64,000 bases of DNA from Patescibacteria group bacterium (lineage in GTDB: Bacteria; Patescibacteriota; Microgenomatia; Levybacterales; GWA1-39-11). Below, one piece after another: positions 10,493 to 60,781 of this stretch (within the stretch, counting starts at the first letter, position 1; every line of letters starts with the position of its first letter). The stretch is from positions 4,514 through 68,513 of the forward strand of contig DASZRC010000027.1 in the NCBI GenBank assembly GCA_035549315.1. Direction: 5' to 3'. The translations under genes were made by a program, and so were the position numbers. The notes under the pieces were generated by a model that saw nothing but the letters and a program-made list of their open reading frames with translations, was not told the DNA's origin and did not search any database.

Positions 10493-12118
10493 ATGGAAAC
10501 TAAAATTTTAAAAGCAGTTTTTTTTGCATCCTTCTTTTTATTTGTAATTTTTATATTTGTAAATATTAATTGGGGAGAACCTTTCTATTTTCACCCCGAT
10601 GAAAGAAATATTGCATCCTCTATCTCTCAATTAAACTTCCCCAAAAATCTAAATCCTCATTTTTTTGCATACGGGTCCCTACCTATATACTTAGCTTTTG
10701 TGCTTGGGTCTATTCCACAAATAGCAAGCAATGGACTCAATAACTTAATTGTTGATTTTAGTACAGCCATAATATTAACAAGGCTTGCATCTGCATTATT
10801 TGCATTACTCTTAATCTTTTTAATTTTTAAAACCACGGAGTTATTGGCAGGGAAAAGAGAGGCTTTTCTTGCAGGAAGCCTTGCGAGTCTTAGTGTTGCC
10901 TATATTCAATTTGCTAATTTTGGGACATTTGAGATGTGGCTTTCTTTTTTCTCACTGTTAATAATTTATCTACTTCTTTTATTTGTTAAATCCGGTAAGG
11001 ATAATTTTATAGTTTATTCATCTATAGCATTTGGGATCTTATGCTCTTTAAAGCTGTCTTTCATAGGCCTTATCCCAATCTTTATTCTGGCACTATTATT
11101 TGGTTTTAAGCCAAAAGATAAAATAGCTAAGAAAATTTTTATATTTCTTTTATTTATTTTAGTTTCAACAATGTCTTATCTTGTATCATCACCCTTCAAT
11201 CTACTGGATAGCCAAGGATTTATTTCAAGCATGAACTATGAAGGATCGGTTGCATTGGGTACGCTTCCGGTTTTCTATACTGGAACTTTTTTTAATACTA
11301 TACCTATCTTGTATCAATATGAAAAAGTTCTCCCTTTTTTAATAAATCCTTTATTAACCTTAATTTCAATTCCGAGTCTTATCTATCTATCCTATTTATC
11401 AATTACAAAAAGGAATAAGTTGTTGGGATTAGTAGTTTTTTCTTTTCTGATAATTTTTGTTTCCCAATCAGCTCTTTTTGTTAAGTGGACTAGATATGCA
11501 GTCCCCAGTCTCTCTTTCTTATATATATTAATTGCTATATTTATTTTTAAAATTAAAGATATAATTAATGGCAAAATTTTTAATTTAATTATTTTATTTG
11601 TTTTGGGAGTTAGTTTTATATATTCAATATCATATGCAAAGACCGTTAAATTATCCCAAGATACGAGAATAGAAGCTCTTAATTTTTCTACCAAAACAAT
11701 TGATAAGAATTCTAAGATATTAAGTGAGGTATATGATCTTGGAATAGTTCCATTTAATAGTTATTATCCGCATATCACATTGTTTAATTTTTATGATTTG
11801 GACAATGTAGATACAAGTAAAAAAGCGTTATCAGAGGAGCTTAATAACTCAGACTACATTATCATACCAAGCCAAAGAATTATGCAATCAAGAATATTAG
11901 ATAATTCTAACTTTCCAAACGGAAACAACTTCTACAAATCTCTCTTTGCTGATAAACTTAACTATAGGAAGATTTATCAAACTCCTTGTGATATCTTTTG
12001 TAAAATTACATATATGGGAGATCCTGTTTTTAATTTAGAACAAACGGCTAGTGTATTTGATAGACCCACTGTTTTTATTTTTGAAAATAAAAAGATCACA
12101 AATAAAAATAATAAATGA
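10493..12118 (+). CDS. GT-C family membrane glycosyltransferase (PMT/ArnT-like), paralog 1
   Basis: A first-loop motif FHPDERN…FPKNLNPHFFAYGSLPIYL is shared with the next gene. Many TM helices are predicted. Confidence 0.6.
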   Translation: METKILKAVFFASFFLFVIFIFVNINWGEPFYFHPDERNIASSISQLNFPKNLNPHFFAYGSLPIYLAFVLGSIPQIASNGLNNLIVDFSTAIILTRLASALFALLLIFLIFKTTELLAGKREAFLAGSLASLSVAYIQFANFGTFEMWLSFFSLLIIYLLLLFVKSGKDNFIVYSSIAFGILCSLKLSFIGLIPIFILALLFGFKPKDKIAKKIFIFLLFILVSTMSYLVSSPFNLLDSQGFISSMNYEGSVALGTLPVFYTGTFFNTIPILYQYEKVLPFLINPLLTLISIPSLIYLSYLSITKRNKLLGLVVFSFLIIFVSQSALFVKWTRYAVPSLSFLYILIAIFIFKIKDIINGKIFNLIILFVLGVSFIYSISYAKTVKLSQDTRIEALNFSTKTIDKNSKILSEVYDLGIVPFNSYYPHITLFNFYDLDNVDTSKKALSEELNNSDYIIIPSQRIMQSRILDNSNFPNGNNFYKSLFADKLNYRKIYQTPCDIFCKITYMGDPVFNLEQTASVFDRPTVFIFENKKITNKNNK

Positions 12119-15462: not shown

Positions 15463-17574
15463 ATGCCCGACCTATTGGTAGTTCTTCAATGGTGGATACC
15501 CATATTTATTGTAGGAATAGTTTTTCTTCCCACAACCGACTTCTTTTTCTCTGGTTTTTTGGATAGGGGGTATCTGTTTTCCAAAGTACTTGGTCTTGGA
15601 ATTACCACATATATCATATTTGTCTTAAGCTTTATTAGAATCCTTCCCTTTAACATCCTGTCTATAATATTGGTTTTGTGGGTTTGTCTAATGGGCAACT
15701 TTTATTTTTTTAAAAAAACCAAATATAAAATAAAATCTCTTCCAATTAAAGCATTTATCTTGGAGGAAATACTTTTTCTTATCTGCATAATATTTTGGTC
15801 ATATATTAGAGCGCATGAACCAAGTATAAACGGTCTTGAAAAATTTATGGATTTTGGTTTCCTAAATTCAATCCTAAGATCTACCTACATGCCCCCAAAT
15901 GACATGTGGTTTACCCCATTCTCAATTAATTATTATTATTTTGGACATCTAACAACTGCCGTCTTAACTAAGATATCTTTCTTGCCGTCTCTATTAACTT
16001 TCAACCTTATGATTGCAACACTCTTTGCCTTTACTTTCTCTTTATCTTTTTCACTAGTCATGAATTTGGTAAATGGTTTTGCAAAAAAAGGCAAAGCATT
16101 AATAGGTGGACTACTTGCTGCTTTTTTTGTTTCTTTTGGAGGAAACCTGCATACTATTTATTCATTATTTAAACCCTATGACGTAGATAATCCAGTACCA
16201 TTTTGGAAACTTGCTTTCTTGCCCCAAACATTCCCAAATAGTTATTGGTATCCCAACGCAACAAGATTTATCCCTTTTACAATTCATGAATTCCCTATCT
16301 ATTCTTTTGTTGTCTCTGATCTTCATGGACATGTATTGGATTTGATGTATGTGCTTTTATTAATTGCCCTGTCTTATGTGCTTTTTGTAAAAGGGGTAAA
16401 TAAGATAATACTTGGAACAATCGCTCTCTTTTTGGCAATTATGTATATGACAAATGCCTGGGATGGTGCAATCTACATGCTACTTGTTGGTTTTGCCATT
16501 CTTGCAAGAAACTATATTGATATTAAATCACACATAAAAAAAAACAAAACATTTTTCAGTTGTTTAATTCCGGCAATTAAAAAAACTATTGTTCCCTTTT
16601 TATCTACGGCAATTCTTTTTGTGATATTTACCCTTCCTTTTAGTTTAACTTTTAAACCTTTTGCCAGCGGCATTGGAGTATTATGCGCACCCTCCTTTTT
16701 AACAAAGATGGAACACTTGGGACCATTCCTTTTTGAAGCAAACCATTGCCAAAAATCTTCATGGTGGGAATTATTAACTCTCTATGGAGCGTTTTATTTC
16801 TTTGCTCTTTCACTGGTATTTTTTGTCTTTAGAACAAAAAAGAAAATATTAGATACCGACTACTTTGCCTTAATCTTAATAGGACTTTCAACAATTTTAA
16901 TAATAATTCCAGAGTTTATTTACTTAAAAGATATTTATCCGGCCCACTACAGAGCCAACACTATGTTTAAGTTAGTTTATCAATCGTTCATAATGTTATC
17001 TCTTGTTTCCTCCTACGCCATTGTTAGGATAATCACTTCAACCAAAAATATATTGTTTTATCTTGCAAGCGTTTTAATACTTATAGGAATATTTATTTAT
17101 CCATATTTTGCAATTAAGGGCTACTACGGAGATTTAACAAATTACAAAGGTCTAGATGGAACTTCTTATCTAAAAGAGAGATACCCACATGACTATGCTG
17201 CAATAAATTGGATCAATAAAAATATAAAGGGAACTCCTGTTATTGCAGAGGCACAGGGCGATTCATATACAGATTATGGAAGAATATCGTCTAATACCGG
17301 CCTTCCAACAATACTTGGATGGACAGTACACGAATGGCTGTGGCGTGGAACCTATGATGTCCCGGCTCCAAGAATTGAGGAAGTAAGAAGGATTTATGAA
17401 TCAAATAGTCTATCTGAAACAAAACAATTATTGAATAAATATAAAACTCAGTACGTATATATTGGAGATTTGGAAAGAGAAAAATACCCAAGCATTAATG
17501 AAACAAAGTTTAATAATTTAGGCAAAGTTGTTTTCCAAGACGGAAATAGCAGGTTGTACAAACTCAACAACTGA
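15463..17574 (+). CDS. DUF2298 / YYY-domain membrane protein (chlor_Arch_YYY family, predicted membrane glycosyltransferase)
   Basis: Contains the hallmark motif INYYYFGH. The 703-aa polytopic membrane protein has a C-terminal soluble domain. Confidence 0.65.
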   Translation: MPDLLVVLQWWIPIFIVGIVFLPTTDFFFSGFLDRGYLFSKVLGLGITTYIIFVLSFIRILPFNILSIILVLWVCLMGNFYFFKKTKYKIKSLPIKAFILEEILFLICIIFWSYIRAHEPSINGLEKFMDFGFLNSILRSTYMPPNDMWFTPFSINYYYFGHLTTAVLTKISFLPSLLTFNLMIATLFAFTFSLSFSLVMNLVNGFAKKGKALIGGLLAAFFVSFGGNLHTIYSLFKPYDVDNPVPFWKLAFLPQTFPNSYWYPNATRFIPFTIHEFPIYSFVVSDLHGHVLDLMYVLLLIALSYVLFVKGVNKIILGTIALFLAIMYMTNAWDGAIYMLLVGFAILARNYIDIKSHIKKNKTFFSCLIPAIKKTIVPFLSTAILFVIFTLPFSLTFKPFASGIGVLCAPSFLTKMEHLGPFLFEANHCQKSSWWELLTLYGAFYFFALSLVFFVFRTKKKILDTDYFALILIGLSTILIIIPEFIYLKDIYPAHYRANTMFKLVYQSFIMLSLVSSYAIVRIITSTKNILFYLASVLILIGIFIYPYFAIKGYYGDLTNYKGLDGTSYLKERYPHDYAAINWINKNIKGTPVIAEAQGDSYTDYGRISSNTGLPTILGWTVHEWLWRGTYDVPAPRIEEVRRIYESNSLSETKQLLNKYKTQYVYIGDLEREKYPSINETKFNNLGKVVFQDGNSRLYKLNN

Positions 17575-17596
17575 CCTGTCTGCCGACAGGCAACTA
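17575..17596. repeat. Palindromic element GACCTGTCTGCCGACAGGCAAC, copy 3 of the GACCTGYCTGCCGRCAGGCA family. It sits immediately after the stop codon of the YYY protein.
   Basis: Seen in the sequence. The two substitutions relative to the other copies are mirror-symmetric (C>T and G>A), which preserves the hairpin. Confidence 0.8.
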
Positions 17597-17606
17597 GCTT
17601 CTTTAT

Positions 17607-20232: not shown

Positions 20233-22116
20233 ATGGAAAACATTCTCAATAAACTAAACGCGGAACAAAAAGTTGCAGTTGTAGCAACAGAAGGACCAAT
20301 TATTGTTCTGGCAGGAGCAGGATCCGGGAAAACTCGTGTACTTATTAATCGCGCCCTTTATTTGGTAGTGGAGAAAAAAGTAAGACCGGAGAATATCTTA
20401 CTAGTTACATTTACAAATAAAGCTGCCGGAGAAATGCTTGAGAGGATTACCAAAACATTTAGCGAGTTCAAAATATCCGGCCAACCAATTGTTGGAACGT
20501 TTCATTCAATATGTTCAAAAATATTAAGACGGGATGGAAGAAGTATAAATATCCCAATAGGTTTCCAAATATTTGACGACCAAGACCAATTAGAAACTGT
20601 AAAGGAAGCTTTTTCTTTTCTAGATATTAGCATTAAAGACATAAAACCAAGGTCAGTACTTGCAACTATATCCCAGGCAAAAAACCAAATGATTGACCCT
20701 GCCTCTTATGAATCTTTTGCGCGGGGATATTTTCAGGAAACAGTTGCAAAAATTTACCCCATATATCAAGGCTTATTGCGGGACCATGAGGCCCTAGACT
20801 TTGATGACCTTATGCTAAAAACTATTGAGTTGTTTAAAAATGACCCAATTGTTTTGTCCCGCTACCAAGACCAATTCCAATATATTATGGTAGATGAGTA
20901 TCAGGATACAAATGAGGCCCAATTCCAACTTACAAAACTTCTTGCTGGAAAGGAAAGAAATGTTTGCATAGTTGGAGATTTCTCCCAAAGTATATATTCT
21001 TTCCGTGGGGCGGATTTTAGGAACTTGGAAAAATTTAAAAGGGATTTCCCGGAAAGTAAAACTTTCCCTCTTTCCCAAAACTATCGCTCTACCCAAAATA
21101 TTTTGAATGCTGCCTACTCTGTGATTTCCAATAATACAATGCACCCTGTTTTATCACTCTGGACACAAAACCATGAGGGAGAAGAAATAAAAATATTTCC
21201 GGCAAATAGCGAACACAATGAGGCAGAATTTATAATTGAAGAAATTACCCTTGCCCAATCACGTGACCCCCGCGTAAAGTTTTCTGATTTTGCCGTACTC
21301 TATAGAACAAATGCGCAATCAAGGGCCCTGGAAGAAACTTTTTTGCATAACTCTATTCCATATATATTAGTAGGTGGCACAAGATTTTATGAGAGACGGG
21401 AAGTAAAAGATGTTCTTTCATACATTGCCTACCTTGCAAATCCCAAAAACAAGGTTGCTCTAAAAAGAATTACAAAGCTTGGGAAAAGAAGATTAGAAAA
21501 ATTCCAAGAATTTGTAAAAGAATTCCAGGAAAATGATTATTTATCCAAGAAAACTACAATAGAAGTATTAGATGACGTGTTGAACAAATCTACTTACCTA
21601 AGTCTTTACAATGAAGAAGATCCGGAAGACAAGGCAAGACTTGAGAATATAAAAGAACTGCGCTCTGTGGCAATTGAATTTCCAAATCTTAATTTATTTT
21701 TGGAAAACGTAGCTCTTGTTGAACAGCAATATTCCTCTAATGGAGCGATGCCAGACCTGCCTGCCGGCAGGCAAGGTGGGCCAGTTGGGGAAAATCCGGA
21801 CGCTGTAACTCTTATGACAATGCACGCAGCAAAAGGACTAGAGTTTGGGACAGTGTTTATTGTTGGAATGGAAGAAGGATTATTCCCCCACTCCCAATCA
21901 ACTTTTGATACAGGAGAACTGGAAGAAGAAAGAAGACTTTGCTATGTTGGAATAACAAGGGCCCGCCACAAACTTTATCTTACTTTTGCAAAAAGAAGAT
22001 TATATTTTGGACAACTTGTAAGTAATTCTATTTCCAGATTTATTTTTGAACTTCCGGAAGAAGTTTTGAAAGCAAATTATATAGAAAGAATAGCCAATGA
22101 ACCGGAGTGGATGTGA
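20233..22116 (+). CDS. uvrD: ATP-dependent DNA helicase, UvrD/PcrA (SF1) family
   Basis: Motif I is VLAGAGSGKT, motif II is VDEYQDTN, motif V is TLMTMHAAKGLEF and motif VI is YVGITRAR. A 7-codon palindromic-element insertion (DLPAGRQ) lies just upstream of motif V. Confidence 0.85.
   Translation: MENILNKLNAEQKVAVVATEGPIIVLAGAGSGKTRVLINRALYLVVEKKVRPENILLVTFTNKAAGEMLERITKTFSEFKISGQPIVGTFHSICSKILRRDGRSINIPIGFQIFDDQDQLETVKEAFSFLDISIKDIKPRSVLATISQAKNQMIDPASYESFARGYFQETVAKIYPIYQGLLRDHEALDFDDLMLKTIELFKNDPIVLSRYQDQFQYIMVDEYQDTNEAQFQLTKLLAGKERNVCIVGDFSQSIYSFRGADFRNLEKFKRDFPESKTFPLSQNYRSTQNILNAAYSVISNNTMHPVLSLWTQNHEGEEIKIFPANSEHNEAEFIIEEITLAQSRDPRVKFSDFAVLYRTNAQSRALEETFLHNSIPYILVGGTRFYERREVKDVLSYIAYLANPKNKVALKRITKLGKRRLEKFQEFVKEFQENDYLSKKTTIEVLDDVLNKSTYLSLYNEEDPEDKARLENIKELRSVAIEFPNLNLFLENVALVEQQYSSNGAMPDLPAGRQGGPVGENPDAVTLMTMHAAKGLEFGTVFIVGMEEGLFPHSQSTFDTGELEEERRLCYVGITRARHKLYLTFAKRRLYFGQLVSNSISRFIFELPEEVLKANYIERIANEPEWM
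21754..21775. repeat. Palindromic element GACCTGCCTGCCGGCAGGCAAG, copy 1, inserted in-frame in the helicase CDS where it encodes DLPAGRQ
   Basis: A 19/20 perfect palindrome, read directly from the sequence. Confidence 0.85.
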
Positions 22117-22158
22117 TAATATCATTAAAACATTAACAGATTAAAAATTAACGAACTA

Positions 22159-22183
22159 CGAATCCGCCAGCTGGCGGACGAAC
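22159..22183. repeat. 25-bp element CGAATCCGCCAGCTGGCGGACGAAC with a 16-bp perfect palindrome core (TCCGCCAGCTGGCGGA, containing CAGCTG). It is flanked by CGAACTAC direct repeats.
   Basis: Identical in reverse orientation at 60154..60178. Confidence 0.8.
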
Positions 22184-22240
22184 TACAATTAGTATTTGGT
22201 ATATGGTAAATAGTGTATAGTAAATGTTAAACAATGTATT

Positions 22241-23203: not shown

Positions 23204-24290
23204 TCTAATAATGGATCAGTTCATTGATATCACAGAGGAAAATAGAGATGATTACAACAAAGTTGTTGATCATCCACTCCAATCCTATGAGTGGGGAGAA
23301 TTTCGCAAAAAAACCGGAGTAAAAGTAATAAGACGCGGACTTGTCAGAGACCTGCCTGCCGGCAGGCAGGTTGTCGATGGATTTACACTAACCCTTCATA
23401 AGGTTCCAAAAACAAAATACTACATTGGCTATCTTCCAAAAGGAAACAAACCCACCCCCCAAATCTTGGAAGAAATAAAAAGAATAGGAATAGAAAATAA
23501 ATGCATATTTATTCAACTCGAACCAAATTTGGTCAATGGTCAATGGTCAATGGTCAAAGGTTTTAATTTAAAACGCGCAGCACATCCACTGTTTACCAAA
23601 TACACTTTTGTTCTTAACATGCAACATACCGAAGAGGAATTGTTAAAAAATATGCATCCAAAAACTCGCTACAACATAAGGGTTGCAGAAAAACACGGGG
23701 TCAAAGTAAAAGAAGATAATTCAGAATCTGCTTTTAATAACTACCTTAAACTTATGACAGAAACAACAGACAGACAAGGATTCTATGCGCACACCCCTTC
23801 TTATCATAAACACTTATGGGAGATTTTATCAAAAAACGAAAAACGAACCACGAACCACAATTCCTTAACATATCATCTTATTAATGCAACCTATAAGCCC
23901 ACGACTAACGACGAACGAACTACAAATAACGATGCAGTTTTAACATCTTGGGTTTTGTTTGTTTTCCATGACCATCTCTATTATCCGTATGGCGCTTCAA
24001 GCCGCCTGTACCGCGAAACAATGTCTAATAACTTAGTTGCATGGGAAGCAATAAAGTTTGGTAAAAAATTGGGATTAAAAGATTTTGATATGTGGGGAGC
24101 GCTAGGTCCGGAGCCAGATAAGAATGATCCTTGGTATGGATTCCATAGATTCAAACAAGGGTATGGTGCAGAACTTGTGGAATTTGTAGGAAGCTACGAC
24201 TTAGTTATAAAACCCGCTTCTTATGAAGTTTATAAAGTTATGGATAAGCTGCGCTGGGCCGCATTAAGAGTCAAAAAAATGATTGGGTAA
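23193..24290 (+). CDS. FemAB/FemX-family peptidoglycan-bridge (aminoacyl-tRNA-dependent) peptidyltransferase
   Basis: The N-terminal motif HPLQSYEWGEF is a FemX/MurM-type motif, and the C-terminal region reads …HDHLYYPYGASS…GYGAELVEF. The CDS contains a palindromic-element insertion (DLPAGRQ), a (GGTCAAT)4 tandem repeat and a low-complexity insertion. Confidence 0.65.
   Translation: MIYNLIMDQFIDITEENRDDYNKVVDHPLQSYEWGEFRKKTGVKVIRRGLVRDLPAGRQVVDGFTLTLHKVPKTKYYIGYLPKGNKPTPQILEEIKRIGIENKCIFIQLEPNLVNGQWSMVKGFNLKRAAHPLFTKYTFVLNMQHTEEELLKNMHPKTRYNIRVAEKHGVKVKEDNSESAFNNYLKLMTETTDRQGFYAHTPSYHKHLWEILSKNEKRTTNHNSLTYHLINATYKPTTNDERTTNNDAVLTSWVLFVFHDHLYYPYGASSRLYRETMSNNLVAWEAIKFGKKLGLKDFDMWGALGPEPDKNDPWYGFHRFKQGYGAELVEFVGSYDLVIKPASYEVYKVMDKLRWAALRVKKMIG
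23348..23369. repeat. Palindromic element GACCTGCCTGCCGGCAGGCAGG, copy 2 (a perfect 20-bp palindrome), inserted in-frame in the FemAB-like CDS where it encodes DLPAGRQ
   Basis: Seen in the sequence. Confidence 0.85.
23531..23558. repeat. Heptanucleotide tandem repeat (GGTCAAT)x3 plus GGTCAAA, lying inside the FemAB-like CDS where it encodes NGQWSMVKG
   Basis: Seen in the sequence. The unit length is not a multiple of 3. Confidence 0.85.
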
Positions 24291-32860: not shown

Positions 32861-32896
32861 GCAGCCAAACAACGTCGCCATTATTGGACGAAAAAC
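32861..32896. repeat. Conserved 3'-end motif GCAGCCAAACAACGTCGCCATTATTGGACGAAAAAC, copy A. It starts 9 bp after the stop of 32905..33540.
   Basis: Copy B (33613..33648) shares ~33/36 nt with it. The core GCAGCCAAACAACGT also occurs at 36047..36061. Confidence 0.75.
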
Positions 32897-32904
32897 TTAA
32901 TGGC

Positions 32905-33540
32905 TTAGGGTTCTTCGTGATATTTTTCCATAAACTCCTGTCTCCACTTTTGTAATCTTGCCGCACTTGGACTATTGGGATCCGGAACATAATCTTTATT
33001 ATTTCCGCCCTCTCTATTAAGATTTTGAATAAATCTTTCCATAACTCTAATATTCTGTAATGAGCCCCTATATTTTCTGCTATATGCGAGCTTCTCAATA
33101 ACTTTTGCATCTTTTGGGTCGAAAATTCCCGCTCCATCCTGTGAATTAACAACAACTATATCGTAGACAAAATCCTTTTTCATCTCATCTGCAAGAGGAC
33201 CAACTAAAAACCTCGTCTCTCTAGGGTTAAATTCAATCTCTTTCCATGCCCCCGCATCGCATAAACCCTCAAATATCTCTATTAATTCCTCTCTAAATGA
33301 CGGTGTTATATGAGCCTGTGGAAGTAATCCCCTGACCCCAACCATAATTCTGTCTTTCAATTCTGATGTTCTGGGCACATCTGAAACTTCCATTGCCGGT
33401 AGACCAAATGCTTTCTCTAATGAACTTGGCTCAACCCTCTTAAATCTCATGTCTCTTCTTGGAAGTAAATCATATAAGCCCAATAATTGGTGATTTAAAA
33501 ATTGAGGATCTTGTGGGATTGGAACGCCTTCTGTTGTCAT
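32905..33540 (-). CDS. Hypothetical protein (211 aa). It is the last gene of the minus-strand hypothetical cluster.
   Basis: ORF only. Confidence 0.45.
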   Translation of the reverse strand: MTTEGVPIPQDPQFLNHQLLGLYDLLPRRDMRFKRVEPSSLEKAFGLPAMEVSDVPRTSELKDRIMVGVRGLLPQAHITPSFREELIEIFEGLCDAGAWKEIEFNPRETRFLVGPLADEMKKDFVYDIVVVNSQDGAGIFDPKDAKVIEKLAYSRKYRGSLQNIRVMERFIQNLNREGGNNKDYVPDPNSPSAARLQKWRQEFMEKYHEEP

Positions 33541-33612
33541 TGGATTGAATTATAAATCCAACCAGCAATAAGGTAAAGTACTTTTGAATAAACGGTCAAA
33601 AACGTCCGACCA

Positions 33613-33648
33613 GCAGCCAAACAACGTGGCAATTATTGGACGAAAGAC
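33613..33648. repeat. Conserved 3'-end motif, copy B (GCAGCCAAACAACGTGGCAATTATTGGACGAAAGAC). It overlaps the stop codon of 33633..35150.
   Basis: Seen in the sequence. Confidence 0.75.
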
Positions 33649-35150
33649 GTAGTTACCTGAATTAATTGAGCTAAGTTTCTTTCCTCTCTCATTCTAAGCC
33701 TCAATTCATCCGCTCTAGTAGATAGTCTTTTTCTCTCCTCTGACCATTTTTCGCGGTCCGTATCTGAATTGGCAGCTTGAATCATTCCATCGAGCGCATT
33801 GCTTCCTCTATTTAATGCTTTTAACTCATGTACCATTAAACCTAATTTATTAAATTCCTCGGCTGCAGAAGAACTCGCAATATAAGATCGATTATCCCAA
33901 TCGGCTCTATTAGCTTTGTCCAATTTTCTTATACGTGATGCCGTCTTTGATAGCTCAATGAGAGCATTAGCAGCCCTTCTTGGATCTTTTACGCGGTCAA
34001 AATCCTGCGCAATCTTTAATTGAGTTTGATATAAAAGTTCAAGATAAGTTATTTTTCTTTTCTCCCAAGTCTCCTTATCCTCTGGTTTCAATTTAATCAT
34101 CCCATCTATTCCTGCTAGACAATATATGAGCTGCGTTACCCGCCTAGAAGGATTGGTTTCCGAATCTGCCATTCTCTTATTCCAACCGATATTTTTATCC
34201 AACCATTGACTCTTATCTTCATCTGTATCTGATAACTTAACCAAATTACTTGTAATGAATGCCGCCAAACCATACTCCGCCCTTAGAGATTCTCCATCCT
34301 GCGCAAGATCTATAGAACGAGTTACAGAATTATCTGCAACAACAAACCATTTCCTAGCCTCGTCTTTATTTACCTCACCATATCCAATCGCAGCTGCAGC
34401 CTGAGCAGACCAGTATATATATACTCTCTCCCCATGAGAATTATCACTCCTATGAGAAACTTCTGCTGCTTTCCGTGCATGATCAAACCATATTTCATCC
34501 CATGCTCTCTTATCTTCTGGAGTATTTACATATAACGCCGCTTTTCTCGCTGATTTATGAAGAGTGGCATGAAAAGTAAATTCCCAACCATTGTTTATAA
34601 GAGATACGGAGTCTAGAATATCATGAAGGTTTTTATATGCCTGTTCTAATAAATCTTTTCGTTTTTCTGGATCTTCCTCTATCTCTGCCTGTTCATTTCT
34701 TGCCCAGGCCTGCATGACAGCGGCAGAAAAAACTTGCCCAGATGAATCTGGCAGTTTTAAATCCAAAGCTTTATCTGACCACTTACATGACTCTTCATAC
34801 CAGTTAATCTTAGCAGCTGGCTCAGTCTCTCCGCGGGCGACTTTAAGTGCACTATCACCTAGATTTACGTATGCCAACAACCTGACCTTGGCGGGCATTT
34901 CTAAATGCAAGATTTTTCTAACCGAGTTGAAGGCTCCAAGCGCATTACCGTCCATCATGTCTACTGTACTATTTTTAATAGCACGGTAGATATTGGGTTT
35001 CCTGACCAAATTAGAACCTCTACCCAAACGCCTATTACTACCTTCTTTTTCTAAAAGAGAATTTGCAAGATCTTCCTCGCCCATATATTGCTCAAGAAGT
35101 GATGCAAAATCTTCTTCTGGTTGAGCACCCGGATTGTCTAGTTCTGTCAT
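33633..35150 (-). CDS. Hypothetical protein (505 aa), predicted all-alpha with repeat-like segments and a C-terminal coiled coil
   Basis: The ORF is preceded by a conserved promoter cassette and followed by motif B. Confidence 0.5.
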   Translation of the reverse strand: MTELDNPGAQPEEDFASLLEQYMGEEDLANSLLEKEGSNRRLGRGSNLVRKPNIYRAIKNSTVDMMDGNALGAFNSVRKILHLEMPAKVRLLAYVNLGDSALKVARGETEPAAKINWYEESCKWSDKALDLKLPDSSGQVFSAAVMQAWARNEQAEIEEDPEKRKDLLEQAYKNLHDILDSVSLINNGWEFTFHATLHKSARKAALYVNTPEDKRAWDEIWFDHARKAAEVSHRSDNSHGERVYIYWSAQAAAAIGYGEVNKDEARKWFVVADNSVTRSIDLAQDGESLRAEYGLAAFITSNLVKLSDTDEDKSQWLDKNIGWNKRMADSETNPSRRVTQLIYCLAGIDGMIKLKPEDKETWEKRKITYLELLYQTQLKIAQDFDRVKDPRRAANALIELSKTASRIRKLDKANRADWDNRSYIASSSAAEEFNKLGLMVHELKALNRGSNALDGMIQAANSDTDREKWSEERKRLSTRADELRLRMREERNLAQLIQVTTSFVQ

Positions 35151-35154
35151 GTGC

Positions 35155-35210
35155 GTATTTTATCAAAAAATGAGGCTAAATGCTCAAGGTTAGTTAGGAG
35201 AGGTTAGTTG
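35155..35210 (-). promoter_or_regulatory. Conserved promoter cassette, copy 1. On the minus strand it reads …AACAACTAACCTCTCCTAACTAACCTTGAGCATTTAGCCTCATTTTTTGATAAAATACGCAC-ATG. A TAAAAT -10 lies 6 nt before the start of 33633..35150, and the cassette also contains a remnant of a small-gene 3' end.
   Basis: About 50 of 53 nt are identical to copy 2 at 36971..37024. A diverged third copy lies at 35985..36015. Confidence 0.55.
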
Positions 35211-35299
35211 TTTTTTATTGAGCCACTTACATTATCAGGCAAATTATCAAAATATAATTTCCTTTGATCTTCCTCAAGTTTACCAATCTGTTTTTCATT

Positions 35300-35980
35300 T
35301 TATTTGTTTACTACTGCATACAAATACTTATATGCATCGACTGCAAGCTGTGCGCCCGCAAGAGTAAATTCCGGAATCAACAATCCATGATAATCGGCAG
35401 CAAAAAGCTGTCTCCTCATACTCTTTAGTTGCTCTTCTACTGTTTTTTCTCCAGAATTATCCTTAATTAAAGTATCACTACGTCTTTTTGCTTGATCTAT
35501 TAACTTCAGATAATATTCTGCGTCTTTAACAGCGTCTAGCTCCACGCCGTTTACAACTCTAACATAATCCATTGATTCCTGAACGACTTGTCCCGCGGTT
35601 CCTGCTATATACTCCTCTCCCGAAGAAATCGAATTAATAATTACACCAGCACCCACTGATGCATCAGCCAAAACAAAGAAGTGATTCATTTCATTCTTGC
35701 CCATCTCAACAAGTGCATCTTTACCCATAACCCCGGAAAGATCCACCATTAATCGTGCTGTAATTAAGCCTGGAACGGAATGCCCTTTGCCAGATTCCCT
35801 ACTATCTCTTATTTCTCCCGCAATATCAGTTTTTTTATCCTTAAGCCCTCTCATGAGAGCTTGCTTGTAGCCGGAAAAATAAGCAAGAGTATCTCTTTTA
35901 TCTGCTTTTGACAGATTTCTTGATCTTTCACCCCACATCACCCTGTATGTAAACACTAAATCATTTTCCTGATTTGCCAT
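35300..35980 (-). CDS. Hypothetical protein, 225-aa family paralog P1
   Basis: Shares with 36285..36962 the motifs WG(E/D)RSRNLS, YFSGY(K/R)Q, LADAS, GEEYIAG and an identical 23-aa C-terminus EFTLAGAQLAVDAYKYLYAVVNK. Confidence 0.55.
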   Translation of the reverse strand: MANQENDLVFTYRVMWGERSRNLSKADKRDTLAYFSGYKQALMRGLKDKKTDIAGEIRDSRESGKGHSVPGLITARLMVDLSGVMGKDALVEMGKNEMNHFFVLADASVGAGVIINSISSGEEYIAGTAGQVVQESMDYVRVVNGVELDAVKDAEYYLKLIDQAKRRSDTLIKDNSGEKTVEEQLKSMRRQLFAADYHGLLIPEFTLAGAQLAVDAYKYLYAVVNK

Positions 35981-36046
35981 AACGCGTATTTTACCAAAAT
36001 ATATGCCTAAAAGCTTATTTTATTTTTATATCCTACAAAAAATTGG

Positions 36047-36061
36047 CAGCCAAACAACGTT
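36047..36061. repeat. Core GCAGCCAAACAACGT, copy C
   Basis: Seen in the sequence. The upstream context AAAAATTGGCAGCC resembles copy A. Confidence 0.6.
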
Positions 36062-36164
36062 TCCATACAAGAATTTAAAATTTAGAAATATTTTGACTCA
36101 TATATGAGACAAAATAAATTAAAAGTTAAGATAAAGAATGTAGTTGTTTGTGGAAGAAAGATCT

Positions 36165-36282: not shown

Positions 36283-36284
36283 TT

Positions 36285-36962
36285 TTATTTGTTTACTACC
36301 GCATACAAATACTTATATGCATCAACTGCTAATTGAGCTCCTGCGAGCGTAAACTCCGGAACCCACAGCCCTCTATATCCCGCAACTGAAAATCCCTTTC
36401 TCAAACTTTTTAATTTATCCTCTACCGTCTTCGCTCCAGAATTATCCTTAATTAAGGCGGAACTACCTAGCTTTGCCTCCTCCATCATCTTTATATATAT
36501 CCCTGCACCACGTACTGCATCTATGCTTGGGTCAAAAGATTCTGCTACATATCCAATAGTTTCGCTCACTTTGTTTTCCGCAATTCCTGCGATATATTCT
36601 TCCCCTTCTGTTACTGAATGCAAGACTAAGGTGGAACCCATGGATGCATCAGCTAAAACTAAAAAATTGTTAACTTTATTCGCCGCCATTTGATTGAGCG
36701 CGTCATGGTCTATTACCCGAGGAATCTCCATCACTAAACGATTGGCTATTAGGCTAGGGACCGAGAGCCTAGTCCTATCTGCTGTAGCAGTCTTTATATC
36801 AGCCACAAGCTCATCCCTCTTATTTTTTAGATCTCTTAATAACGACTGCCTGTATCCGGAGAAGTAGAACATAGCAGCTTTTTTATCTGCTTCCGAAAGA
36901 TTTCTACTTCTATCTCCCCACGCTTCTCTCATTCTAAATACTAATCCAGCTTCATGATTCAT
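36285..36962 (-). CDS. Hypothetical protein, 225-aa family paralog P2
   Basis: Paralogous to 35300..35980. The last ~45 nt of the two genes are nearly identical, and a promoter cassette copy lies upstream. Confidence 0.55.
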   Translation of the reverse strand: MNHEAGLVFRMREAWGDRSRNLSEADKKAAMFYFSGYRQSLLRDLKNKRDELVADIKTATADRTRLSVPSLIANRLVMEIPRVIDHDALNQMAANKVNNFLVLADASMGSTLVLHSVTEGEEYIAGIAENKVSETIGYVAESFDPSIDAVRGAGIYIKMMEEAKLGSSALIKDNSGAKTVEDKLKSLRKGFSVAGYRGLWVPEFTLAGAQLAVDAYKYLYAVVNK

Positions 36963-36970: not shown

Positions 36971-37024
36971 CATTTTATCAAAAAATGAGGCTAAATGCTC
37001 AAGGTTAATTAGGAGAGGTTAGTG
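36971..37024 (-). promoter_or_regulatory. Conserved promoter cassette, copy 2. It is upstream of paralog P2 and overlaps the last codons and stop of 37009..37353.
   Basis: Near-identical to 35155..35210. Confidence 0.55.
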
Positions 37025-48330: not shown

Positions 48331-48810
48331 CTATCTATCCTTTATCCGATAGACAAATTTTAAACCTGAATAGATATCATTTATTGCTGCAACTTTTACA
48401 TCTACCAAGCCGTTTTTAAGACCTATTCCCCGAATTATATTTTCATCAAGATCTGTAACAACGCCAGATGTTTTTTTGGGCCAAGATACCCAAAGAGCAC
48501 CATCTTTTTTGAGATGAACAAAAGCTTGTCTAAATAGAGTCTCTAGATCCTCTTTTGACTTAGAAAATATGTGTATGTAGTCAAAATTTCCATCCAATTT
48601 GTTTTTAGCCACTATATAATAAGGAAGCTCACCCAGGGATTCTTTAAAATCGCTAGGCTCGTTGATAAATATAACTCGGGAATTTTCTTTTATCCCAAGC
48701 TTTTTATAAAGTGGAGTACTTGAATAGCCAGTCATAAGCCTGTTCTTAGATATTAGATCTTGGATCTTAGATTTATATAAAAGATATAAGCAATTGTAGC
48801 ATAATTGCAT
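48331..48810 (-). CDS. Hypothetical protein. The true start may be the internal Met at ~48735.
   Basis: ORF only. Confidence 0.4.
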   Translation of the reverse strand: MQLCYNCLYLLYKSKIQDLISKNRLMTGYSSTPLYKKLGIKENSRVIFINEPSDFKESLGELPYYIVAKNKLDGNFDYIHIFSKSKEDLETLFRQAFVHLKKDGALWVSWPKKTSGVVTDLDENIIRGIGLKNGLVDVKVAAINDIYSGLKFVYRIKDR

Positions 48811-49719: not shown

Positions 49720-50508
49720 TTAAGTTCTGGAATTATTTTTATTAGGCTTAATTAATCTTTCAACGGCTTCACTCGTTAATAATTCTGCATTAGTTAAAGA
49801 ATGAGCAAAAGCGGCATTACGATATCCTCTTTCTCTCATAAATCTCCATTGGGAAACTCCAGCAAAAAATTGAACAACGGGCTTAGCTTTTAAATTAAGC
49901 GTCTTCTTCCCTGTATCTTTATTTTCTTCTAGTTCAATCGCGTGATACAACGCAAAAGCAGCTGCTGCTCCTATACCCACACCCCAATCTAAAAATTTAT
50001 TGTCTTTACCAACAATAACGGATGGTAGAGATCTGAATGTAGCTTCTTCTACCTGCGGGGCAACACCTGTTGCTATAACCCCCATCTCAAAAGGAGCTCT
50101 ATTTATTAGTTCCGCCATTTTTTTAACATTGTCTTTACCTAATCCAATCTGGAGCCCCATCTTGTCAGTAACATTTTTAACTAAAAGCTCTACGGACGTA
50201 ACTGCGGTAACTTCCACAGCTGTTTTGATATAATCACGAATATCTACTTTTGACTCCTTACCCGAAATGCTTGCTACACCTTTCTCCAACGCTATTGTAT
50301 ATGCCAATCCTCCAACAACACCAATCCAAGTACCTGCCAAAAATTTTGCCCAATTTTCTTTTGGAATTCCCGCTAGAATAGCCTTTAAATCTTCATCTCC
50401 GCTACCTACTTCTCCAATAGATTTTTTTTGTTTAGATTTGAATTTTGCAAAGAGATCTCTGCTCGAAAACCCCTTTTCATCGCTTGGCATATTATTATTT
50501 TCTGTCAT
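49720..50508 (-). CDS. CPBP-family intramembrane glutamic endopeptidase (CAAX protease/Abi-like)
   Basis: Motifs EEATFR (EExxxR), FALYHAIE (FxxxH) and HSLTN (HxxxN). The ORF-track start at 50580 runs into a duplicated tRNA fragment, so the internal Met at 50508 is the likelier start. Confidence 0.6.
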   Translation of the reverse strand: MTENNNMPSDEKGFSSRDLFAKFKSKQKKSIGEVGSGDEDLKAILAGIPKENWAKFLAGTWIGVVGGLAYTIALEKGVASISGKESKVDIRDYIKTAVEVTAVTSVELLVKNVTDKMGLQIGLGKDNVKKMAELINRAPFEMGVIATGVAPQVEEATFRSLPSVIVGKDNKFLDWGVGIGAAAAFALYHAIELEENKDTGKKTLNLKAKPVVQFFAGVSQWRFMRERGYRNAAFAHSLTNAELLTSEAVERLIKPNKNNSRT

Positions 50509-50536
50509 ATTTTTATTGGGAGAGATTTTCACTTGT

Positions 50537-50576
50537 GAAGTACTGAGTTCACCGAAGTGCGGAGAGGGCGAGATTC
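50537..50576. repeat. 40-bp direct repeat, copy 1. It duplicates the 3'-terminal 17 nt of tRNA-Ser(TGA) plus 23 nt of 3' flank.
   Basis: Identical to 50643..50682. Confidence 0.85.
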
Positions 50577-50642
50577 CCATTCGACTTCGCTCAGGGTAAA
50601 CTTCTCATCTCGCATCTTCCATTCCTCAGCAATCTCAGTATC

Positions 50643-50682
50643 GAAGTACTGAGTTCACCGAAGTGCGGAGAGGGCGAGATTC
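50643..50682. repeat. 40-bp direct repeat, copy 2. It overlaps the 3' end of tRNA-Ser(TGA).
   Basis: Seen in the sequence. Confidence 0.85.
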
Positions 50683-50752
50683 GAACTCGCGGTGAGCTTG
50701 CACCCACAAAGGTTTTCAAGACCTTCGCACTAGACCACTATGCGACCTCTCC
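50666..50752 (-). tRNA. tRNA-Ser (anticodon UGA)
   Basis: Manual fold: acceptor GGAGAGG/CCTCTCC, anticodon loop CTTGAAA, long variable arm, T-loop GTTCGAATC and discriminator G. CCA is not encoded. Confidence 0.85.
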
Positions 50753-55231: not shown

Positions 55232-55255
55232 GTTATAGGCAATAGGTATTAGGGG

Positions 55256-55328
55256 TGGGCGCGATAGGACTCGAACCTATGACCAGGTGTGTATAAGACA
55301 CCCGCTCTACCAACTGAGCTACACGCCC
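55256..55328 (-). tRNA. tRNA-Ile with a genomically encoded UAU anticodon
   Basis: A canonical 73-nt cloverleaf: acceptor GGGCGTG/CGCGCCC, D-arm TAGCTCAGTTGGTAGAGC, anticodon stem GGTGT/ACACC, loop CTTATAC and T-loop GGTTCGAGTCC. Confidence 0.8.
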
Positions 55329-57182: not shown

Positions 57183-57238
57183 GCTAGCTGATAAGCTTAG
57201 GGCTAGCAATTTTTATTTCTTAATTCTTAATTTTTATT

Positions 57239-57270: not shown

Positions 57271-57367
57271 GCTTTAAACATTGAAAATTAACAATTGATT
57301 AGAAATTAGTAATTAAAAATTGGAAATTAAATGGAAATCCATTTGAAATGGTATAATTGTAAGAAGT

Positions 57368-58264: not shown

Positions 58265-60112
58265 ATGGATACGAACGTTTTGCTGTCCAAAATTGTTGCT
58301 ACCCCAAAAGAATCTGGCTGGTCACAGGCTTATTCCACTTTGAACCTCTATATTGTTCTAAGTATTAAGTCCGACCAATCTGATCAACCAACAACCAGTG
58401 GTGAAACAGGAAAAATAGTTGCTGAAGGAAAAGAACTATTTGAAAGGATTCAAAGAGAATACTTCTCACTAGATGAGAAAAATCTTAAAAAGATTAAAGA
58501 GAGTGTAGATGCTGCCCTTGATGGAATTGAGGATAAAAGTAGAATTTCTGTCTTACTTGCAACCCTAACAGATAACATTCTCTACATTGTTATTGCTACC
58601 GGTGGAAGTGTGATTCTAAAAAGAGAAGATAAACTTGGTGTTATTGCCAAAGGAACACCTGGGATAACAGAAGCTTTTTCCGGAGAATTAAAAAATAATG
58701 ACATTGTATTAATTGAAACAGAAGATTTTGCAAACAAATTACCAATAGCAAAGCTTACAGAAGTTCTTGACCACCTTGAAGTTTCTGAGATATCAGAAAG
58801 TCTTGCTCCTTTAATTCATGAAGATTCTTTGGGAAGTGAAGCGGCAATTGTACTGCAATATAAAAATCTTTCGGAAAAAGAAGAGATGGCCGCAGGCCCA
58901 GGAGAAGTTATTGATACTGACGAATCAGGAGAAACTGAACAACCACACACAAGTGGGGAATCTGTATTTGATGAACCCGTTGAAGAAGAAATAAAACATG
59001 AAAAAGCAGAAAGCCATATGCCTTCTATTAAGGCTCCAAAAATAAACGCACCAAGCTTTAAGGCAGGAGGCAAAAAGAAATTAATAATCGCTGCAATTAT
59101 TATTCTTGTTGTAATACTTCTTGGAAGTATTGTTTTTGAAAGGTCAAGAATGGATGCTAAAAAGAGGGCTTCTGTCCTAAATGAAATCTTAGGACCTGCA
59201 CAGAAAAAGTATGATGAGGCCAGTGATTTAATATCCCTTAACAAGGGTCTTGCGCTAGATGACTTTAATGAACTAAAAGCAGACCTTGACCGTGATCAAG
59301 CAAAATTAAAGACGGGAACCCCTGAACGCCAAAAACTTGATGAGTTTATAGGAAAGGTAGAATCAAAGATTGGAGAGCTCGGAACAGGAAATACGGTAAC
59401 AGGAGACAAAGTTATTTTTGATAATGTATCTCTTGTTTACTTTAACGGTTCAAAGATTGTTGCGACAGATAAAGATGGAAAAGGATATGTACTAGATACA
59501 GACGGCACTAAACAAGAAGATCTTTCAACAGATAATAAAAATACTGTTGCCATAACAGCTAGCGATACAGACGTTTTCATAATGGGAGATGATGGAATTA
59601 CAAGAAGTCCAATTGCAGGAGGAACTTCTAAAACCGCTGTTAAAGATGCTGCTGACACAATTTCTATGGGAACTTTTGGAACCAATCTCTACGGACTTAA
59701 TTCCAAAGATAAAACAGTTTACAAATATGCTGGCGGAACAACAAAGGGTGATTACTTTACGGGGGACGTAACACTTAATAATCCAACAAGTATGGCAATT
59801 GACAGCTCAATCTGGATAATGGACGATGGAAAGATAAAAAGGTTTACCAGAGGCAAAGAAGATAGCTTTATTGTAAATGGACTAACAGGAGACATTTCAC
59901 CCGATTCACAAATATTTACCGGGGTTGATTATGCAAACGTTTACGTCTTGGATAAAAAGGCCGCCAAGATAATATCGATCAACAAAAGTGGTGAAGTCCA
60001 AAACCAATATATGTGGACCAAACTATCTGGTGCAACATCATTTGCAGTCAATGAAGACGGCAAAAAAATCTACATCACAATAGACAACAAACTTTACTCC
60101 ATAGACCTCTAA
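58265..60112 (+). CDS. Membrane protein with an N-terminal cytoplasmic domain, an acidic linker, one TM and a C-terminal extracytoplasmic beta-propeller-like repeat domain
   Basis: A TM lies at residues ~270-290. The C-terminal repeats are of the form …(D/N)x(I/V)Y(V/I)xD…G.I.R/K…. Confidence 0.5.
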   Translation: MDTNVLLSKIVATPKESGWSQAYSTLNLYIVLSIKSDQSDQPTTSGETGKIVAEGKELFERIQREYFSLDEKNLKKIKESVDAALDGIEDKSRISVLLATLTDNILYIVIATGGSVILKREDKLGVIAKGTPGITEAFSGELKNNDIVLIETEDFANKLPIAKLTEVLDHLEVSEISESLAPLIHEDSLGSEAAIVLQYKNLSEKEEMAAGPGEVIDTDESGETEQPHTSGESVFDEPVEEEIKHEKAESHMPSIKAPKINAPSFKAGGKKKLIIAAIIILVVILLGSIVFERSRMDAKKRASVLNEILGPAQKKYDEASDLISLNKGLALDDFNELKADLDRDQAKLKTGTPERQKLDEFIGKVESKIGELGTGNTVTGDKVIFDNVSLVYFNGSKIVATDKDGKGYVLDTDGTKQEDLSTDNKNTVAITASDTDVFIMGDDGITRSPIAGGTSKTAVKDAADTISMGTFGTNLYGLNSKDKTVYKYAGGTTKGDYFTGDVTLNNPTSMAIDSSIWIMDDGKIKRFTRGKEDSFIVNGLTGDISPDSQIFTGVDYANVYVLDKKAAKIISINKSGEVQNQYMWTKLSGATSFAVNEDGKKIYITIDNKLYSIDL

Positions 60113-60153
60113 TTAGCTTATGGCTGATAGCAATTCGTTTTTCGTAATTCGCC

Positions 60154-60178
60154 GTTCGTCCGCCAGCTGGCGGATTCG
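60154..60178. repeat. Second copy, in reverse orientation, of the element CGAATCCGCCAGCTGGCGGACGAAC
   Basis: The reverse complement is identical to 22159..22183. Confidence 0.8.
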
Positions 60179-60244
60179 TTATATCATTCATCATTAATCT
60201 ACAATCAATAATCATTAATTTATTATTGTTGGTATAATAGGTTC

Positions 60245-60685
60245 ATGCGAGTTGTTAATAAATTTGCCAATACGTATAAGCCTCTTGATAAAATTGAGGC
60301 AGGCATTGCTTTGCTTGGAAGTGAGGTAAAGGCTTTACGTGAAGGACATGCTGACATAACCGGCAGCTATATTAGAATAAGTGGTCTTGAGGCATATCTA
60401 GTTAATGGAAAGATTTTTCCATATAAGTTTTCTAGAATTGGCGGATACCAAGAAGATAGAAGCAGAAAACTATTGCTCCATAAAAAGGAAATATTGGCTT
60501 TGAAAAGCAAAATGGATCAAGGGAAATATACAATTATTCCGCTGGCAATTTATTTAAAAGACAGAAATTTTAAAGTTGAAATAGCTCTTGTTGAAAGCAA
60601 AGATAAAAGAGAAAAAAGGCGGGACAAAAGACGTGACACTATGGAACGCGACGAAGCGCGGGAAATAAAAAACCTAGTTTCCTAA
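60245..60685 (+). CDS. smpB: SsrA-binding protein SmpB
   Basis: SmpB core (…GIALLGSEVKALREGHADITGSYI…LLHKKEILAL…) and a basic C-terminal tail. Confidence 0.85.
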   Translation: MRVVNKFANTYKPLDKIEAGIALLGSEVKALREGHADITGSYIRISGLEAYLVNGKIFPYKFSRIGGYQEDRSRKLLLHKKEILALKSKMDQGKYTIIPLAIYLKDRNFKVEIALVESKDKREKRRDKRRDTMERDEAREIKNLVS

Positions 60686-60781
60686 TTTTCTCTCCGCATC
60701 CCAGAACTACCTAAAATGTCTCCTATTTAGCCTCAGATTGGGCTTGAAAATAGACCTATAATTTGGTATAATAATGGCCTT

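Follow-up and report, generated by a model that had tools for sequence, protein, structure and literature searches.

Rickettsia palindromic elements (RPE) are selfish palindromic DNA in protein-coding genes, with RPE-1 about 100-150 bp long, and they are confined to one genus. The cyanobacterial SDR and the yeast mitochondrial GC clusters are tiny (about 20-40 nt) palindrome-containing insertions, sometimes nested, in otherwise conserved sequence. To our knowledge, no dispersed palindromic repeats have been described in the genomes of Patescibacteria, candidate phyla whose genomes are small and tightly packed. Here a palindromic repeat of 26 nt is described, which is present twice in a stretch of 64,000 nucleotides from a Patescibacteria group bacterium (assembly GCA_035549315.1, contig DASZRC010000027.1, positions 4,514 to 68,513; the whole stretch is called the window below). 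We lean, by a modest degree, towards reading the element as a REP-like miniature non-autonomous palindromic insert that belongs to a cross-phylum family.

The CGTC-tagged super-family of repetitive extragenic palindromes (REPs) consists of short palindromes from several phyla, which are sometimes intragenic (uvrD, rec genes) and have no associated transposase (Di Nocera et al. 2013, PMC3733652, where RPE are also named). Its members are defined by an unpaired terminal CGTC (or TGTC/CCTC), a stem of 8-9 bp opening with two A-T pairs, a loop of 4-5 nt and a CCA-like tail, and are mostly located between convergent or unidirectional genes, near 3' ends (PMC3733652). Since this definition was given in 2013, CGTC-type REPs have had no known mobilising enzyme. 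Tandem heptamer arrays are common to distant phyla, with no mechanism known (MacGregor 2015, PMC4679880; Mrazek 2007 as cited there), and the word 'palindrom' is absent from the text of MacGregor 2015 (PMC4679880).

The likeness of our element to the CGTC-tagged REPs is that of a short (20-40 bp), imperfect and dispersed palindrome, mostly extragenic and sometimes in genes, which is found in multiple phyla, with no associated transposase in the loci compared. The 26-nt unit contains a 16-bp palindrome, has two identical copies in the window, carries CGTC on one strand (TTCGTCCGCC...) and has a 4-nt loop. However, this CGTC is partly within the stem (TC paired), the stem opens with T-C-C rather than with A-T pairs, and the tail is TTCG/CGAAC, with no CCA. 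Regarding the spacer preference of the CGTC-tagged REPs, both window copies are in unidirectional spacers, and 61 intergenic copies elsewhere follow the spacer-length shares. The core of the element was also found nested in the loops of CGTC-type hairpins in several genomes. Judged by its sequence, the element was classed with the REP kind but outside the CGTC-tagged definition. It resembles RPE in being a palindromic repeat of an AT-rich reduced genome that is tolerated both in frame within genes and in spacers, but it measures 16-26 bp, is unrelated in sequence and has a core that spans phyla. Like the SDR and yeast mitochondrial GC clusters, it represents G+C-rich hairpins invading A+T-rich DNA, although in other lineages and with other sequences.

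Two identical copies in the window

The 26-mer ACGAATCCGCCAGCTGGCGGACGAAC is present in two identical copies, at 22158-22183 (+) and 60154-60179 (-). The first-pass annotation of the window had listed an identical 25-mer in opposite orientations, and exact matches to it (CGAATCCGCCAGCTGGCGGACGAAC) were found at 22159-22183 (+) and 60154-60178 (-), the identity extending 1 base further to give the 26-mer. No third match to the 25-mer exists in the window at up to 3 mismatches, and none was obtained in 100 shuffles; degenerate copies of the 26-mer (up to 8 mismatches) and paired half-sites of it are likewise missing elsewhere in the window. A chance origin of the two copies is ruled out by these shuffles and by a scan of the window for the core palindrome. 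Each unit carries the palindrome TCCGCCAGCTGGCGGA, perfect over 16 bp, between short CGAA flanks. This core contains CAGCTG, as had been annotated, and in the window (G+C content 35.9%) is confined to the two copies. The copies and the heptamer repeats associated with them are as follows:

22158..22183, + strand: copy 1 (26-nt unit ACGAATCCGCCAGCTGGCGGACGAAC); the spacer, of 124 nt, separates a UvrD-type helicase gene from a 320-aa open reading frame (ORF)
22163..22178, no strand: copy 1 core, perfect 16-bp palindrome (palindrome scan, RNA folding)
22150..22192, + strand: heptamer context of copy 1, ACGAACT ACGAAT[palindrome]ACGAACT ACAATTA (read directly from the sequence)
60154..60179, - strand: copy 2 (26-nt unit as the reverse complement); the spacer, of 132 nt, separates a 615-aa ORF from smpB
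60159..60174, no strand: copy 2 core, perfect 16-bp palindrome (palindrome scan, RNA folding)
60134..60158, + strand: NNCGAAN heptamer array (reading on the - strand), four TTCG words 6-8 nt apart, abutting copy 2 (sequence)
23837..23935, + strand: ACGAnnn heptamer runs AAACGAAAAACGAACCACGAACCAC and ACGACTAACGACGAACGAACTACAAATAACGATGC in a FemAB-like gene (sequence)

Both copies are intergenic between co-directional plus-strand genes, which agrees with the annotation. Copy 1 follows the UvrD-type helicase gene (20233-22116) and precedes the 320-aa ORF (from 22241), and copy 2 follows the 615-aa ORF (58265-60112) and precedes smpB (from 60245). Both 26-mers start exactly 42 nt past the last base of the upstream stop codon. 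This equal offset was judged to be a coincidence, because the two 41-nt intervening sequences are unrelated and there is no preferred distance in other genomes.

In RNA form, copy 1 folds into a 6-bp G+C stem with an AGCU loop (-10.9 kcal/mol) and copy 2, on the + strand, into a 7-bp stem with an AGCU loop (-12.5 kcal/mol), both in a 43-nt context, and the unit is asymmetric owing to a CG/CG extension that runs across an AA bulge. From these foldings, the upstream mRNA is likely to carry, at both sites, a stable G+C stem-loop within its 3' untranslated part, which may slow exonucleases or pause RNA polymerase. A G+C-rich stem-loop located soon after a stop codon between co-directional genes is also what an intrinsic terminator looks like, but no U-run follows the hairpin at either copy (the tails are CGAACUACAAUUAG and UUCGUUAUAUCAUUC), no site was called at either copy in an intrinsic-terminator scan, and the two copies are in opposite orientation. 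The window hairpins are not canonical intrinsic terminators. The Rfam 15 covariance-model search gave no match at either copy, even with E up to 10, nor did any Rfam match coincide with the element at 18 loci elsewhere. At the window copies, neither a tRNA nor a tRNA-like fold was called.

The flanks of both copies are built of heptamers. The bracketed segment of the copy 1 context (ACGAAT[...]ACGAACT) is CCGCCAGCTGGCGG, and the 8-bp sequence CGAACTAC flanks this copy at 22152-22159 and 22179-22186, with a third occurrence at 23916 in the FemAB gene. Copy 2 lacks the CGAACTAC bracket and on the - strand reads ACGAAT[...]ACGAACG GCGAATT ACGAAAA ACGAATT. Two such arrays were seen in the window, compared with 0.02 expected in shuffles. 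The bracket around copy 1 had been likened to a target-site duplication. The direct repeat itself is real, but it is better explained as two units of an ACGAAnn heptamer array, and it is absent at copy 2. A target duplication of fixed length was rejected as well: flanking repeats vary (8 to 12 nt elsewhere) and are accounted for by the 7-nt periodicity. The suggestion of a role like that of a miniature inverted-repeat transposable element (MITE) found no support either, as the unit of 16-26 bp has neither separate terminal inverted repeats nor an internal segment and the 8-bp bracket exists at copy 1 only. The low-complexity stretch of the FemAB-like coding sequence, annotated as similar in composition to the element, could be verified: it consists of ACGAnnn heptamers with a composition like the copy 1 flanks, in a variable protein segment for which the closest relative has a different heptamer type.

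Period-7 rows make up 12 of the 50 tandem-repeat (TRF) rows of the window, and heptamer arrays appear to be a hallmark of its genome. Short tandem heptamers, which form the flanks of the element here and in many genomes, are of the same kind as the published tandem heptanucleotide repeats (TAACTGA repeats, PMC4679880), whereas the published arrays were described alone. Period-7 arrays of the window are located at 13134, 23530-23561, 23832-23858, 39010, 48746-48787, 57208-57236, 57298-57329, 60183-60219, 61951-62024 and 62697-62723, most of them in spacers just upstream of genes; examples are ATCTTTA x5.3 (100% identity) and TGGTCAA x4.6 within FemAB.

The palindrome in the closest relative and in other genomes

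The closest relative found was GCA_035545675.1, with protein identities of 78% (615-aa protein) and 81-82% (helicase, FemAB) and the same gene order at both loci. Both palindrome copies are missing from its syntenic spacers. Its helicase spacer comprises 80 nt with six TAGGGAn-type heptamers and no hairpin (-4 kcal/mol), and its smpB spacer has kept the promoter-proximal part and the TTCG heptamer array, with the palindrome missing. Since the relative has the array without the palindrome, the palindrome of copy 2 was probably added to a pre-existing heptamer array. GC-rich perfect palindromes with arms of at least 7 bp were not found in the 36.6 kb of the relative sampled for palindromes, versus several in the 64-kb window. 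The simplest reading of these sequence comparisons is that both palindrome families (the second is described below) would have been gained in the window's lineage. The first-pass annotation had counted a lack of conservation in close relatives against the repeat. Neither copy is indeed present in the closest relative found, but other phyla have the core at more than 100 sites, and this recurrence points to gain rather than chance for copies absent from the relative.

The smpB spacer of the relative carries another, AT-rich palindrome, TGTCTCATATATGAGACA, which is followed by TTTATT (L121 11905-11925). A one-mismatch copy of TGTCTCATATATGAGACA is located in the window at 36096-36109, inside a larger imperfect palindrome (36073-36132). 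At two orthologous places, namely the spacer after the helicase gene and the variable loop of FemAB, heptamers of the ACGAAnn type are present in the window (22117-22240 and 23837-23935) versus TAGGGAn-type heptamers in the relative, whose counterparts are L126 9921-10000 and L126 FemAB at about 11630-11700 (with TAGGGAn reverse-complemented in FemAB). From the aligned sequences it looks as if orthologous sites were rewritten with a different heptamer type in each genome.

Other genomes were searched, with one genome per species, for the exact central 20-mer ATCCGCCAGCTGGCGGACGA. It was found in more than 118 genome stretches among the matches listed, for which a random 20-mer would be expected about once. 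Many of the matches in G+C-rich genomes lie within coding sequence (IRQLADE in ABC-type ATPases and others); these were discounted as unrelated. Low- and medium-G+C genomes account, among the matches listed, for about 75 copies that are non-coding or resemble inserts, including about 27 Patescibacteria genomes of many classes and about 20 Bacteroidota; the other hosts are AT-rich gammaproteobacterial metagenome-assembled genomes (MAGs), Bdellovibrionales, Elusimicrobia, Marinimicrobia and Cloacimonetes. More than one copy is present in several genomes, a Wolfebacteria MAG having at least 6. Within one genome, the shared unit is 25-60 nt long and the flanks are genome-specific. Among the bacterial variants, asymmetric loops (AGCC, AGTT, TTT) on compensated stems are frequent. 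The 24-mer, in which CGAA borders the core on either side, was found in 74 metagenome stretches, most of which belong to the sub-family TTAGCCACGAA[core]CGAATTAGCACGAAA, and the bare 16-mer was found in 55 viral-contig stretches, whereas two control palindromes of matched composition gave 6 and 14. Among annotated plasmids and phages, weak coding-region matches were obtained only (E of at least 0.6), and a literature search by sequence over roughly 8 million papers found neither core sequence in a relevant context. The annotation of a repeat family rather than a chance pair is thus borne out, by the recurrence of the core in more than 100 places in other phyla and by the lack of any match in the shuffles.

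The placement of copies was counted with a crude ORF model in loci below 50% G+C. Among 111 classifiable copies 61 are intergenic, while spacers make up 13% of the sequence. These intergenic copies are in co-directional (42), convergent (10) and divergent (9) spacers, matching the spacer-length shares of 69%, 14% and 17%, and the asymmetric unit is oriented with transcription in 17 cases and against it in 16. It had been asked whether copies are limited to intergenic places between convergent or co-directional genes, as for a terminator. They are not: divergent spacers are not avoided and copies are also located within ORFs. A terminator role is weak on these grounds, together with the even strand ratio and the missing U-tract and terminator call at the window copies. 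Copies in long ORFs are read in all frames (IRQLAD, SASWR, PPAGG), as illustrated by the in-frame copy in RecR (...RVSRI-DPPAGGR-VSEIILATNP...).

Nesting at hairpin tips was indicated by 18 of 89 flank pairs with at least 4 bp of extra pairing, compared with about 6 expected. The host hairpins include intrinsic-terminator-like stems (L040, L103), hairpins of the form TGTC-ATCCC...GGGAT-CCA, which is the CGTC-REP type (L003, L016, L034, L077), and hairpins of the form CATTGCGA...GAAGCAATC (L129, L143). Flanking direct repeats of at least 8 nt were found in 10 of 89 cases, compared with about 1 expected. The excess of flank identity is specific to lag 7 (0.312 vs 0.259) and reflects heptamer arrays such as ATTTCGA, AAATTCG, CCGAAAT, AGTTCAA and AAGTCAG.

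A second GC-rich palindrome family of the window, with the core CTGCCTGCCGGCAGGCAG, has three sites:

21753..21778, no strand: sister palindrome TGCCTGCCGGCAGGCA in the helicase ORF, in frame as DLPAGRQ (repeat scan; the relative lacks it)
23348..23373, no strand: sister 22-bp perfect palindrome ACCTGCCTGCCGGCAGGCAGGT in the FemAB ORF, read as DLPAGRQ (repeat and palindrome scans)
17572..17597, no strand: sister variant CCTGTCTGCCGACAGG, starting in the stop codon of the ORF 15463-17574 (repeat and palindrome scans)

The CCTGTCTGCCGACAGG variant (17575-17590) differs from the other sister copies by one symmetric compensated C>T / G>A pair. Sister palindromes are missing from the helicase and FemAB genes of the relative, where the FemAB site has 12 nt versus 24 nt in the window. 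The contexts of the sister family are of the same kinds as those of the 16-bp core family, and its 18-mer was found in 37 viral-contig stretches, with several per phage contig. In one phage contig, a GIY-YIG gene is located between two copies of a tRNA-like segment whose sole difference is a 20-bp sister-palindrome insertion. This insertion is clean: it separates the GGTA and the GAGC of the D-loop and has produced no target duplication. A MITE has an internal segment (about 50-500 bp) between terminal inverted repeats and a target-site duplication of constant length; the element, at 16-26 bp, has no internal segment and no fixed target-site duplication.

In Bacteroidota, the core and close variants of it are located in pseudo-copies of tRNA-Arg and tRNA-Met beside real tRNA genes, where the palindrome stands in for the D-arm, or for the 3' half of the anticodon stem and the variable loop. 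Tandem pseudo-copies of tRNA-Met or tRNA-Arg are present in the loci L011 (6650-7650), L089 (6720-7360) and L093 (5450-5930); their GC palindromes are TTCGCCAGCTGGCGAA, TCCGTCAGCTGACGGA and TCCGCCAGCCGGCGGA, and a small GIY-YIG gene adjoins in L011 (7299-7553) and L089 (7035-7274). In the loci compared, 6 of 11 genes for 80-residue GIY-YIG proteins are within 71 nt of such a palindrome, counting both families. As regards REPtrons and RAYT-mobilised REPs, in which the repeats lie on both sides of a RAYT (Y1 HUH transposase) gene, ORFs within 2 kb of the palindrome were compared in about 100 loci, and the only palindrome-linked gene family was the small GIY-YIG, in 4 Bacteroidota loci; the other recurring neighbour clusters, from one Sphingobacterium repeat and one phage family, reflect sequence that is paralogous or co-linear. 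The 64-kb window has no GIY-YIG gene, and 11 Microgenomates GIY-YIG loci, including that of the relative, have no such palindrome nearby. GIY-YIG was accordingly rejected as a general partner, and it is a lead, not an established mechanism. In Microgenomates, a 78-residue GIY-YIG gene is usually located about 550-650 nt downstream of smpB (L315-L325), with other neighbours varying. The gap between smpB and this gene would fit a tmRNA gene; the corresponding part of the window (60685-61220) has no GIY-YIG gene, and in the relative the GIY-YIG gene (L121 12428-12664) overlaps the smpB stop codon, with a tmRNA-3'-end-like sequence on the opposite strand.

Across 24 contigs of one phage family (L137, L140, L175, L181, L294-L313), the same intergenic site carries a perfect palindrome of 22 bp, about 25 nt ahead of a ribosome-binding site and with identical flanks. 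Eight symmetric variants were found, including AATTCCGCCAGCTGGCGGAATT, AATTCCGTCCATGGACGGAATT and AATTCCTTCCATGGAAGGAATT, and one change turns CAGCTG at the centre into CCATGG. In this set, 96.6% of cells pair, two-sided changes are present in 5 of 11 pairs, and the covariation score was reached by 0 of 500 shuffles. The two central pairs change together, though they would be in the loop of an RNA hairpin. These patterns would be explained either by a constraint on double-stranded DNA (dsDNA) or by variants arising through hairpin-templated correction or wholesale palindrome swapping. A 34-kb phage contig has three palindrome copies, each just upstream of a AGTAGGGGG ribosome-binding site.

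Interpretation of the element

The reading as a REP-like insert is based on sites that are dispersed, lineage-specific, indifferent to the direction of transcription and hairpin-tolerant, and on the membership of a cross-phylum family. The element would have been inserted after the lineages of the window and the relative split. Its spread would be at the level of DNA, with copies persisting only at sites that tolerate an additional hairpin, and two routes are plausible: a trans-acting enzyme might recognise the hairpin or palindrome, or template switching might take place between hairpin-forming copies.

Several points weigh against this reading. Only two copies are visible in the source genome, of which the 64-kb window and 6.7 kb more were sampled. 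No transposase or other recurrent gene is located beside the copies in the loci compared, and no movement was observed. The absence from the relative could also be due to loss there, given a protein divergence of about 20% and spacers that align only in part. Perfect 16-bp palindromes form a small space (65,536), and some of the recurrence of the bare 16-mer could be convergent. Finally, the palindrome of the phage family looks, from its sequence variants, like a maintained functional hairpin or binding site and not like a mobile insert.

Among the rival explanations, a functional RNA hairpin at gene boundaries survives best, and we regard it as possible but fairly unlikely. The hairpin would be a U-tract-independent terminator, a pause site or a stabiliser of mRNA 3' ends, whose copies would be kept alike by gene conversion or hairpin-templated correction, with no mobile insertion. 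Such a function is consistent with the stable stem and with the location of both copies between co-directional genes, exactly 42 nt after the stop codon. A spacer may also need some hairpin, as suggested by the other, AT-rich palindrome and TTTATT in the smpB spacer of the relative, and the fixed place in the phage spacers, about 25 nt before the ribosome-binding site and with symmetric changes only, fits as well. However, neither window copy has a U-tract or a terminator call, and the helicase spacer of the relative does without a hairpin (-4 kcal/mol). The copies in other genomes are not depleted in divergent spacers, have no strand bias and are in many cases within ORFs. In the phage set, self-complementarity is kept even by the four 'loop' bases at the centre, a feature not needed for an RNA hairpin, and convergence would leave the identical asymmetric flanks of the 20-mer across phyla unexplained.

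A bolder view, which we consider doubtful, is that the 16-bp palindrome and its sister CTGCCTGCCGGCAGGCAG represent the smallest known class of mobile DNA, namely palindromes of 16-22 bp that would move between sites, phyla and phages and insert without target duplication into single-stranded loops. The target loops would be the tips of REP and terminator hairpins, the D and variable arms of tRNAs, and slipped heptamer arrays, and hairpins already in place could even be overwritten by the palindromes. Movement might be brought about by a structure-specific nuclease, for example the adjoining 80-residue GIY-YIG proteins.

It is rather improbable, in our estimate, that the palindrome is a dsDNA target of some dimeric protein, such as a nuclease, a recombinase, a repressor or part of a restriction-modification system, perhaps the small GIY-YIG nuclease, with which it would spread. 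The dyad symmetry of the core is perfect through its centre (CAGCTG), symmetric replacement reaches the central bases in the phage variants (CAGCTG to CCATGG), and genes of 80-residue GIY-YIG proteins are at most 71 nt from a palindrome in 6 of 11 cases, in both families. Nevertheless, the window is without a GIY-YIG gene and the GIY-YIG genes of Microgenomates are without a nearby palindrome. The window copies differ in their distance to the -10 boxes downstream of them, the relative can dispense with both, copies inside ORFs and hairpin loops would be odd for an operator, and many bacterial loops are asymmetric (AGCC, AGTT, TTT).

An origin of the 26-mers as decayed tRNA-gene fragments or integrase attachment (att) sites can be dismissed as very improbable: CGAATCC is similar to a T-loop, and in Bacteroidota tRNA-like sequence surrounds the core, between the anticodon loop and the T-arm of pseudo-tRNAs in L011, L031, L089, L093 and L099, but the window sites have no tRNA or tRNA-like fold, their flanks are without T-arm or acceptor sequence, and the palindrome replaces native tRNA sequence in the pseudo-tRNAs and is not derived from it. 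For the window, a tRNA-derived repeat or att site is largely refuted, a continuous tRNA segment being present in some Bacteroidota loci only.

The finding is real and not ordinary. The part contributed by the window is small (two copies), and the interest is in the cross-phylum family and its odd places. If the REP-like cross-phylum family is real, unrelated bacteria and phages would be receiving an identical sequence of 16-20 nt in their spacers, hairpin loops, tRNA-like genes and proteins, for which a shared enzyme or a shared vector would be needed. If the palindromes indeed are the smallest mobile DNA, this would suggest what mobilises the transposase-less CGTC-type REPs, and the nesting of the core in such REPs together with the GIY-YIG adjacency makes the question of their mobilisation concretely testable. 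In practical terms, proteins gain 4-11 residues from the inserts, and both gene calling and alignment can be led astray by them in MAGs.

Other features of the window

Several further repeats and RNA features were observed in the window. The last 25 nt of tRNA-Ser(tga) and a 22-nt trailer are repeated at 94% identity 106 nt downstream (50537-50583 and 50643-50689, - strand); this duplication overlaps the start of the ORF 49720-50580 and looks attachment-site-style. A 52-nt repeat with 98% identity (35157-35208, 36972-37023) is located beside two paralogous - strand genes, which are 73% identical over 215 nt (35298-35512, 36283-36497), and a 39-nt word, GCAGCCAAACAACGT..., has three occurrences in 32861-36084.

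A sub-threshold match to RF03531 (Clostridioides difficile 'sRNA included into helicase gene') was obtained at 21901-21995 (+), with 56.3 bits versus a gathering value of 65.2. This match falls within the helicase ORF and is most likely due to the conservation of helicase coding sequence. A tRNA-Ile with the anticodon TAT, an uncommon one in bacteria, was called by ARAGORN at 55254-55328 (-), and a tRNA was confirmed there by Rfam.

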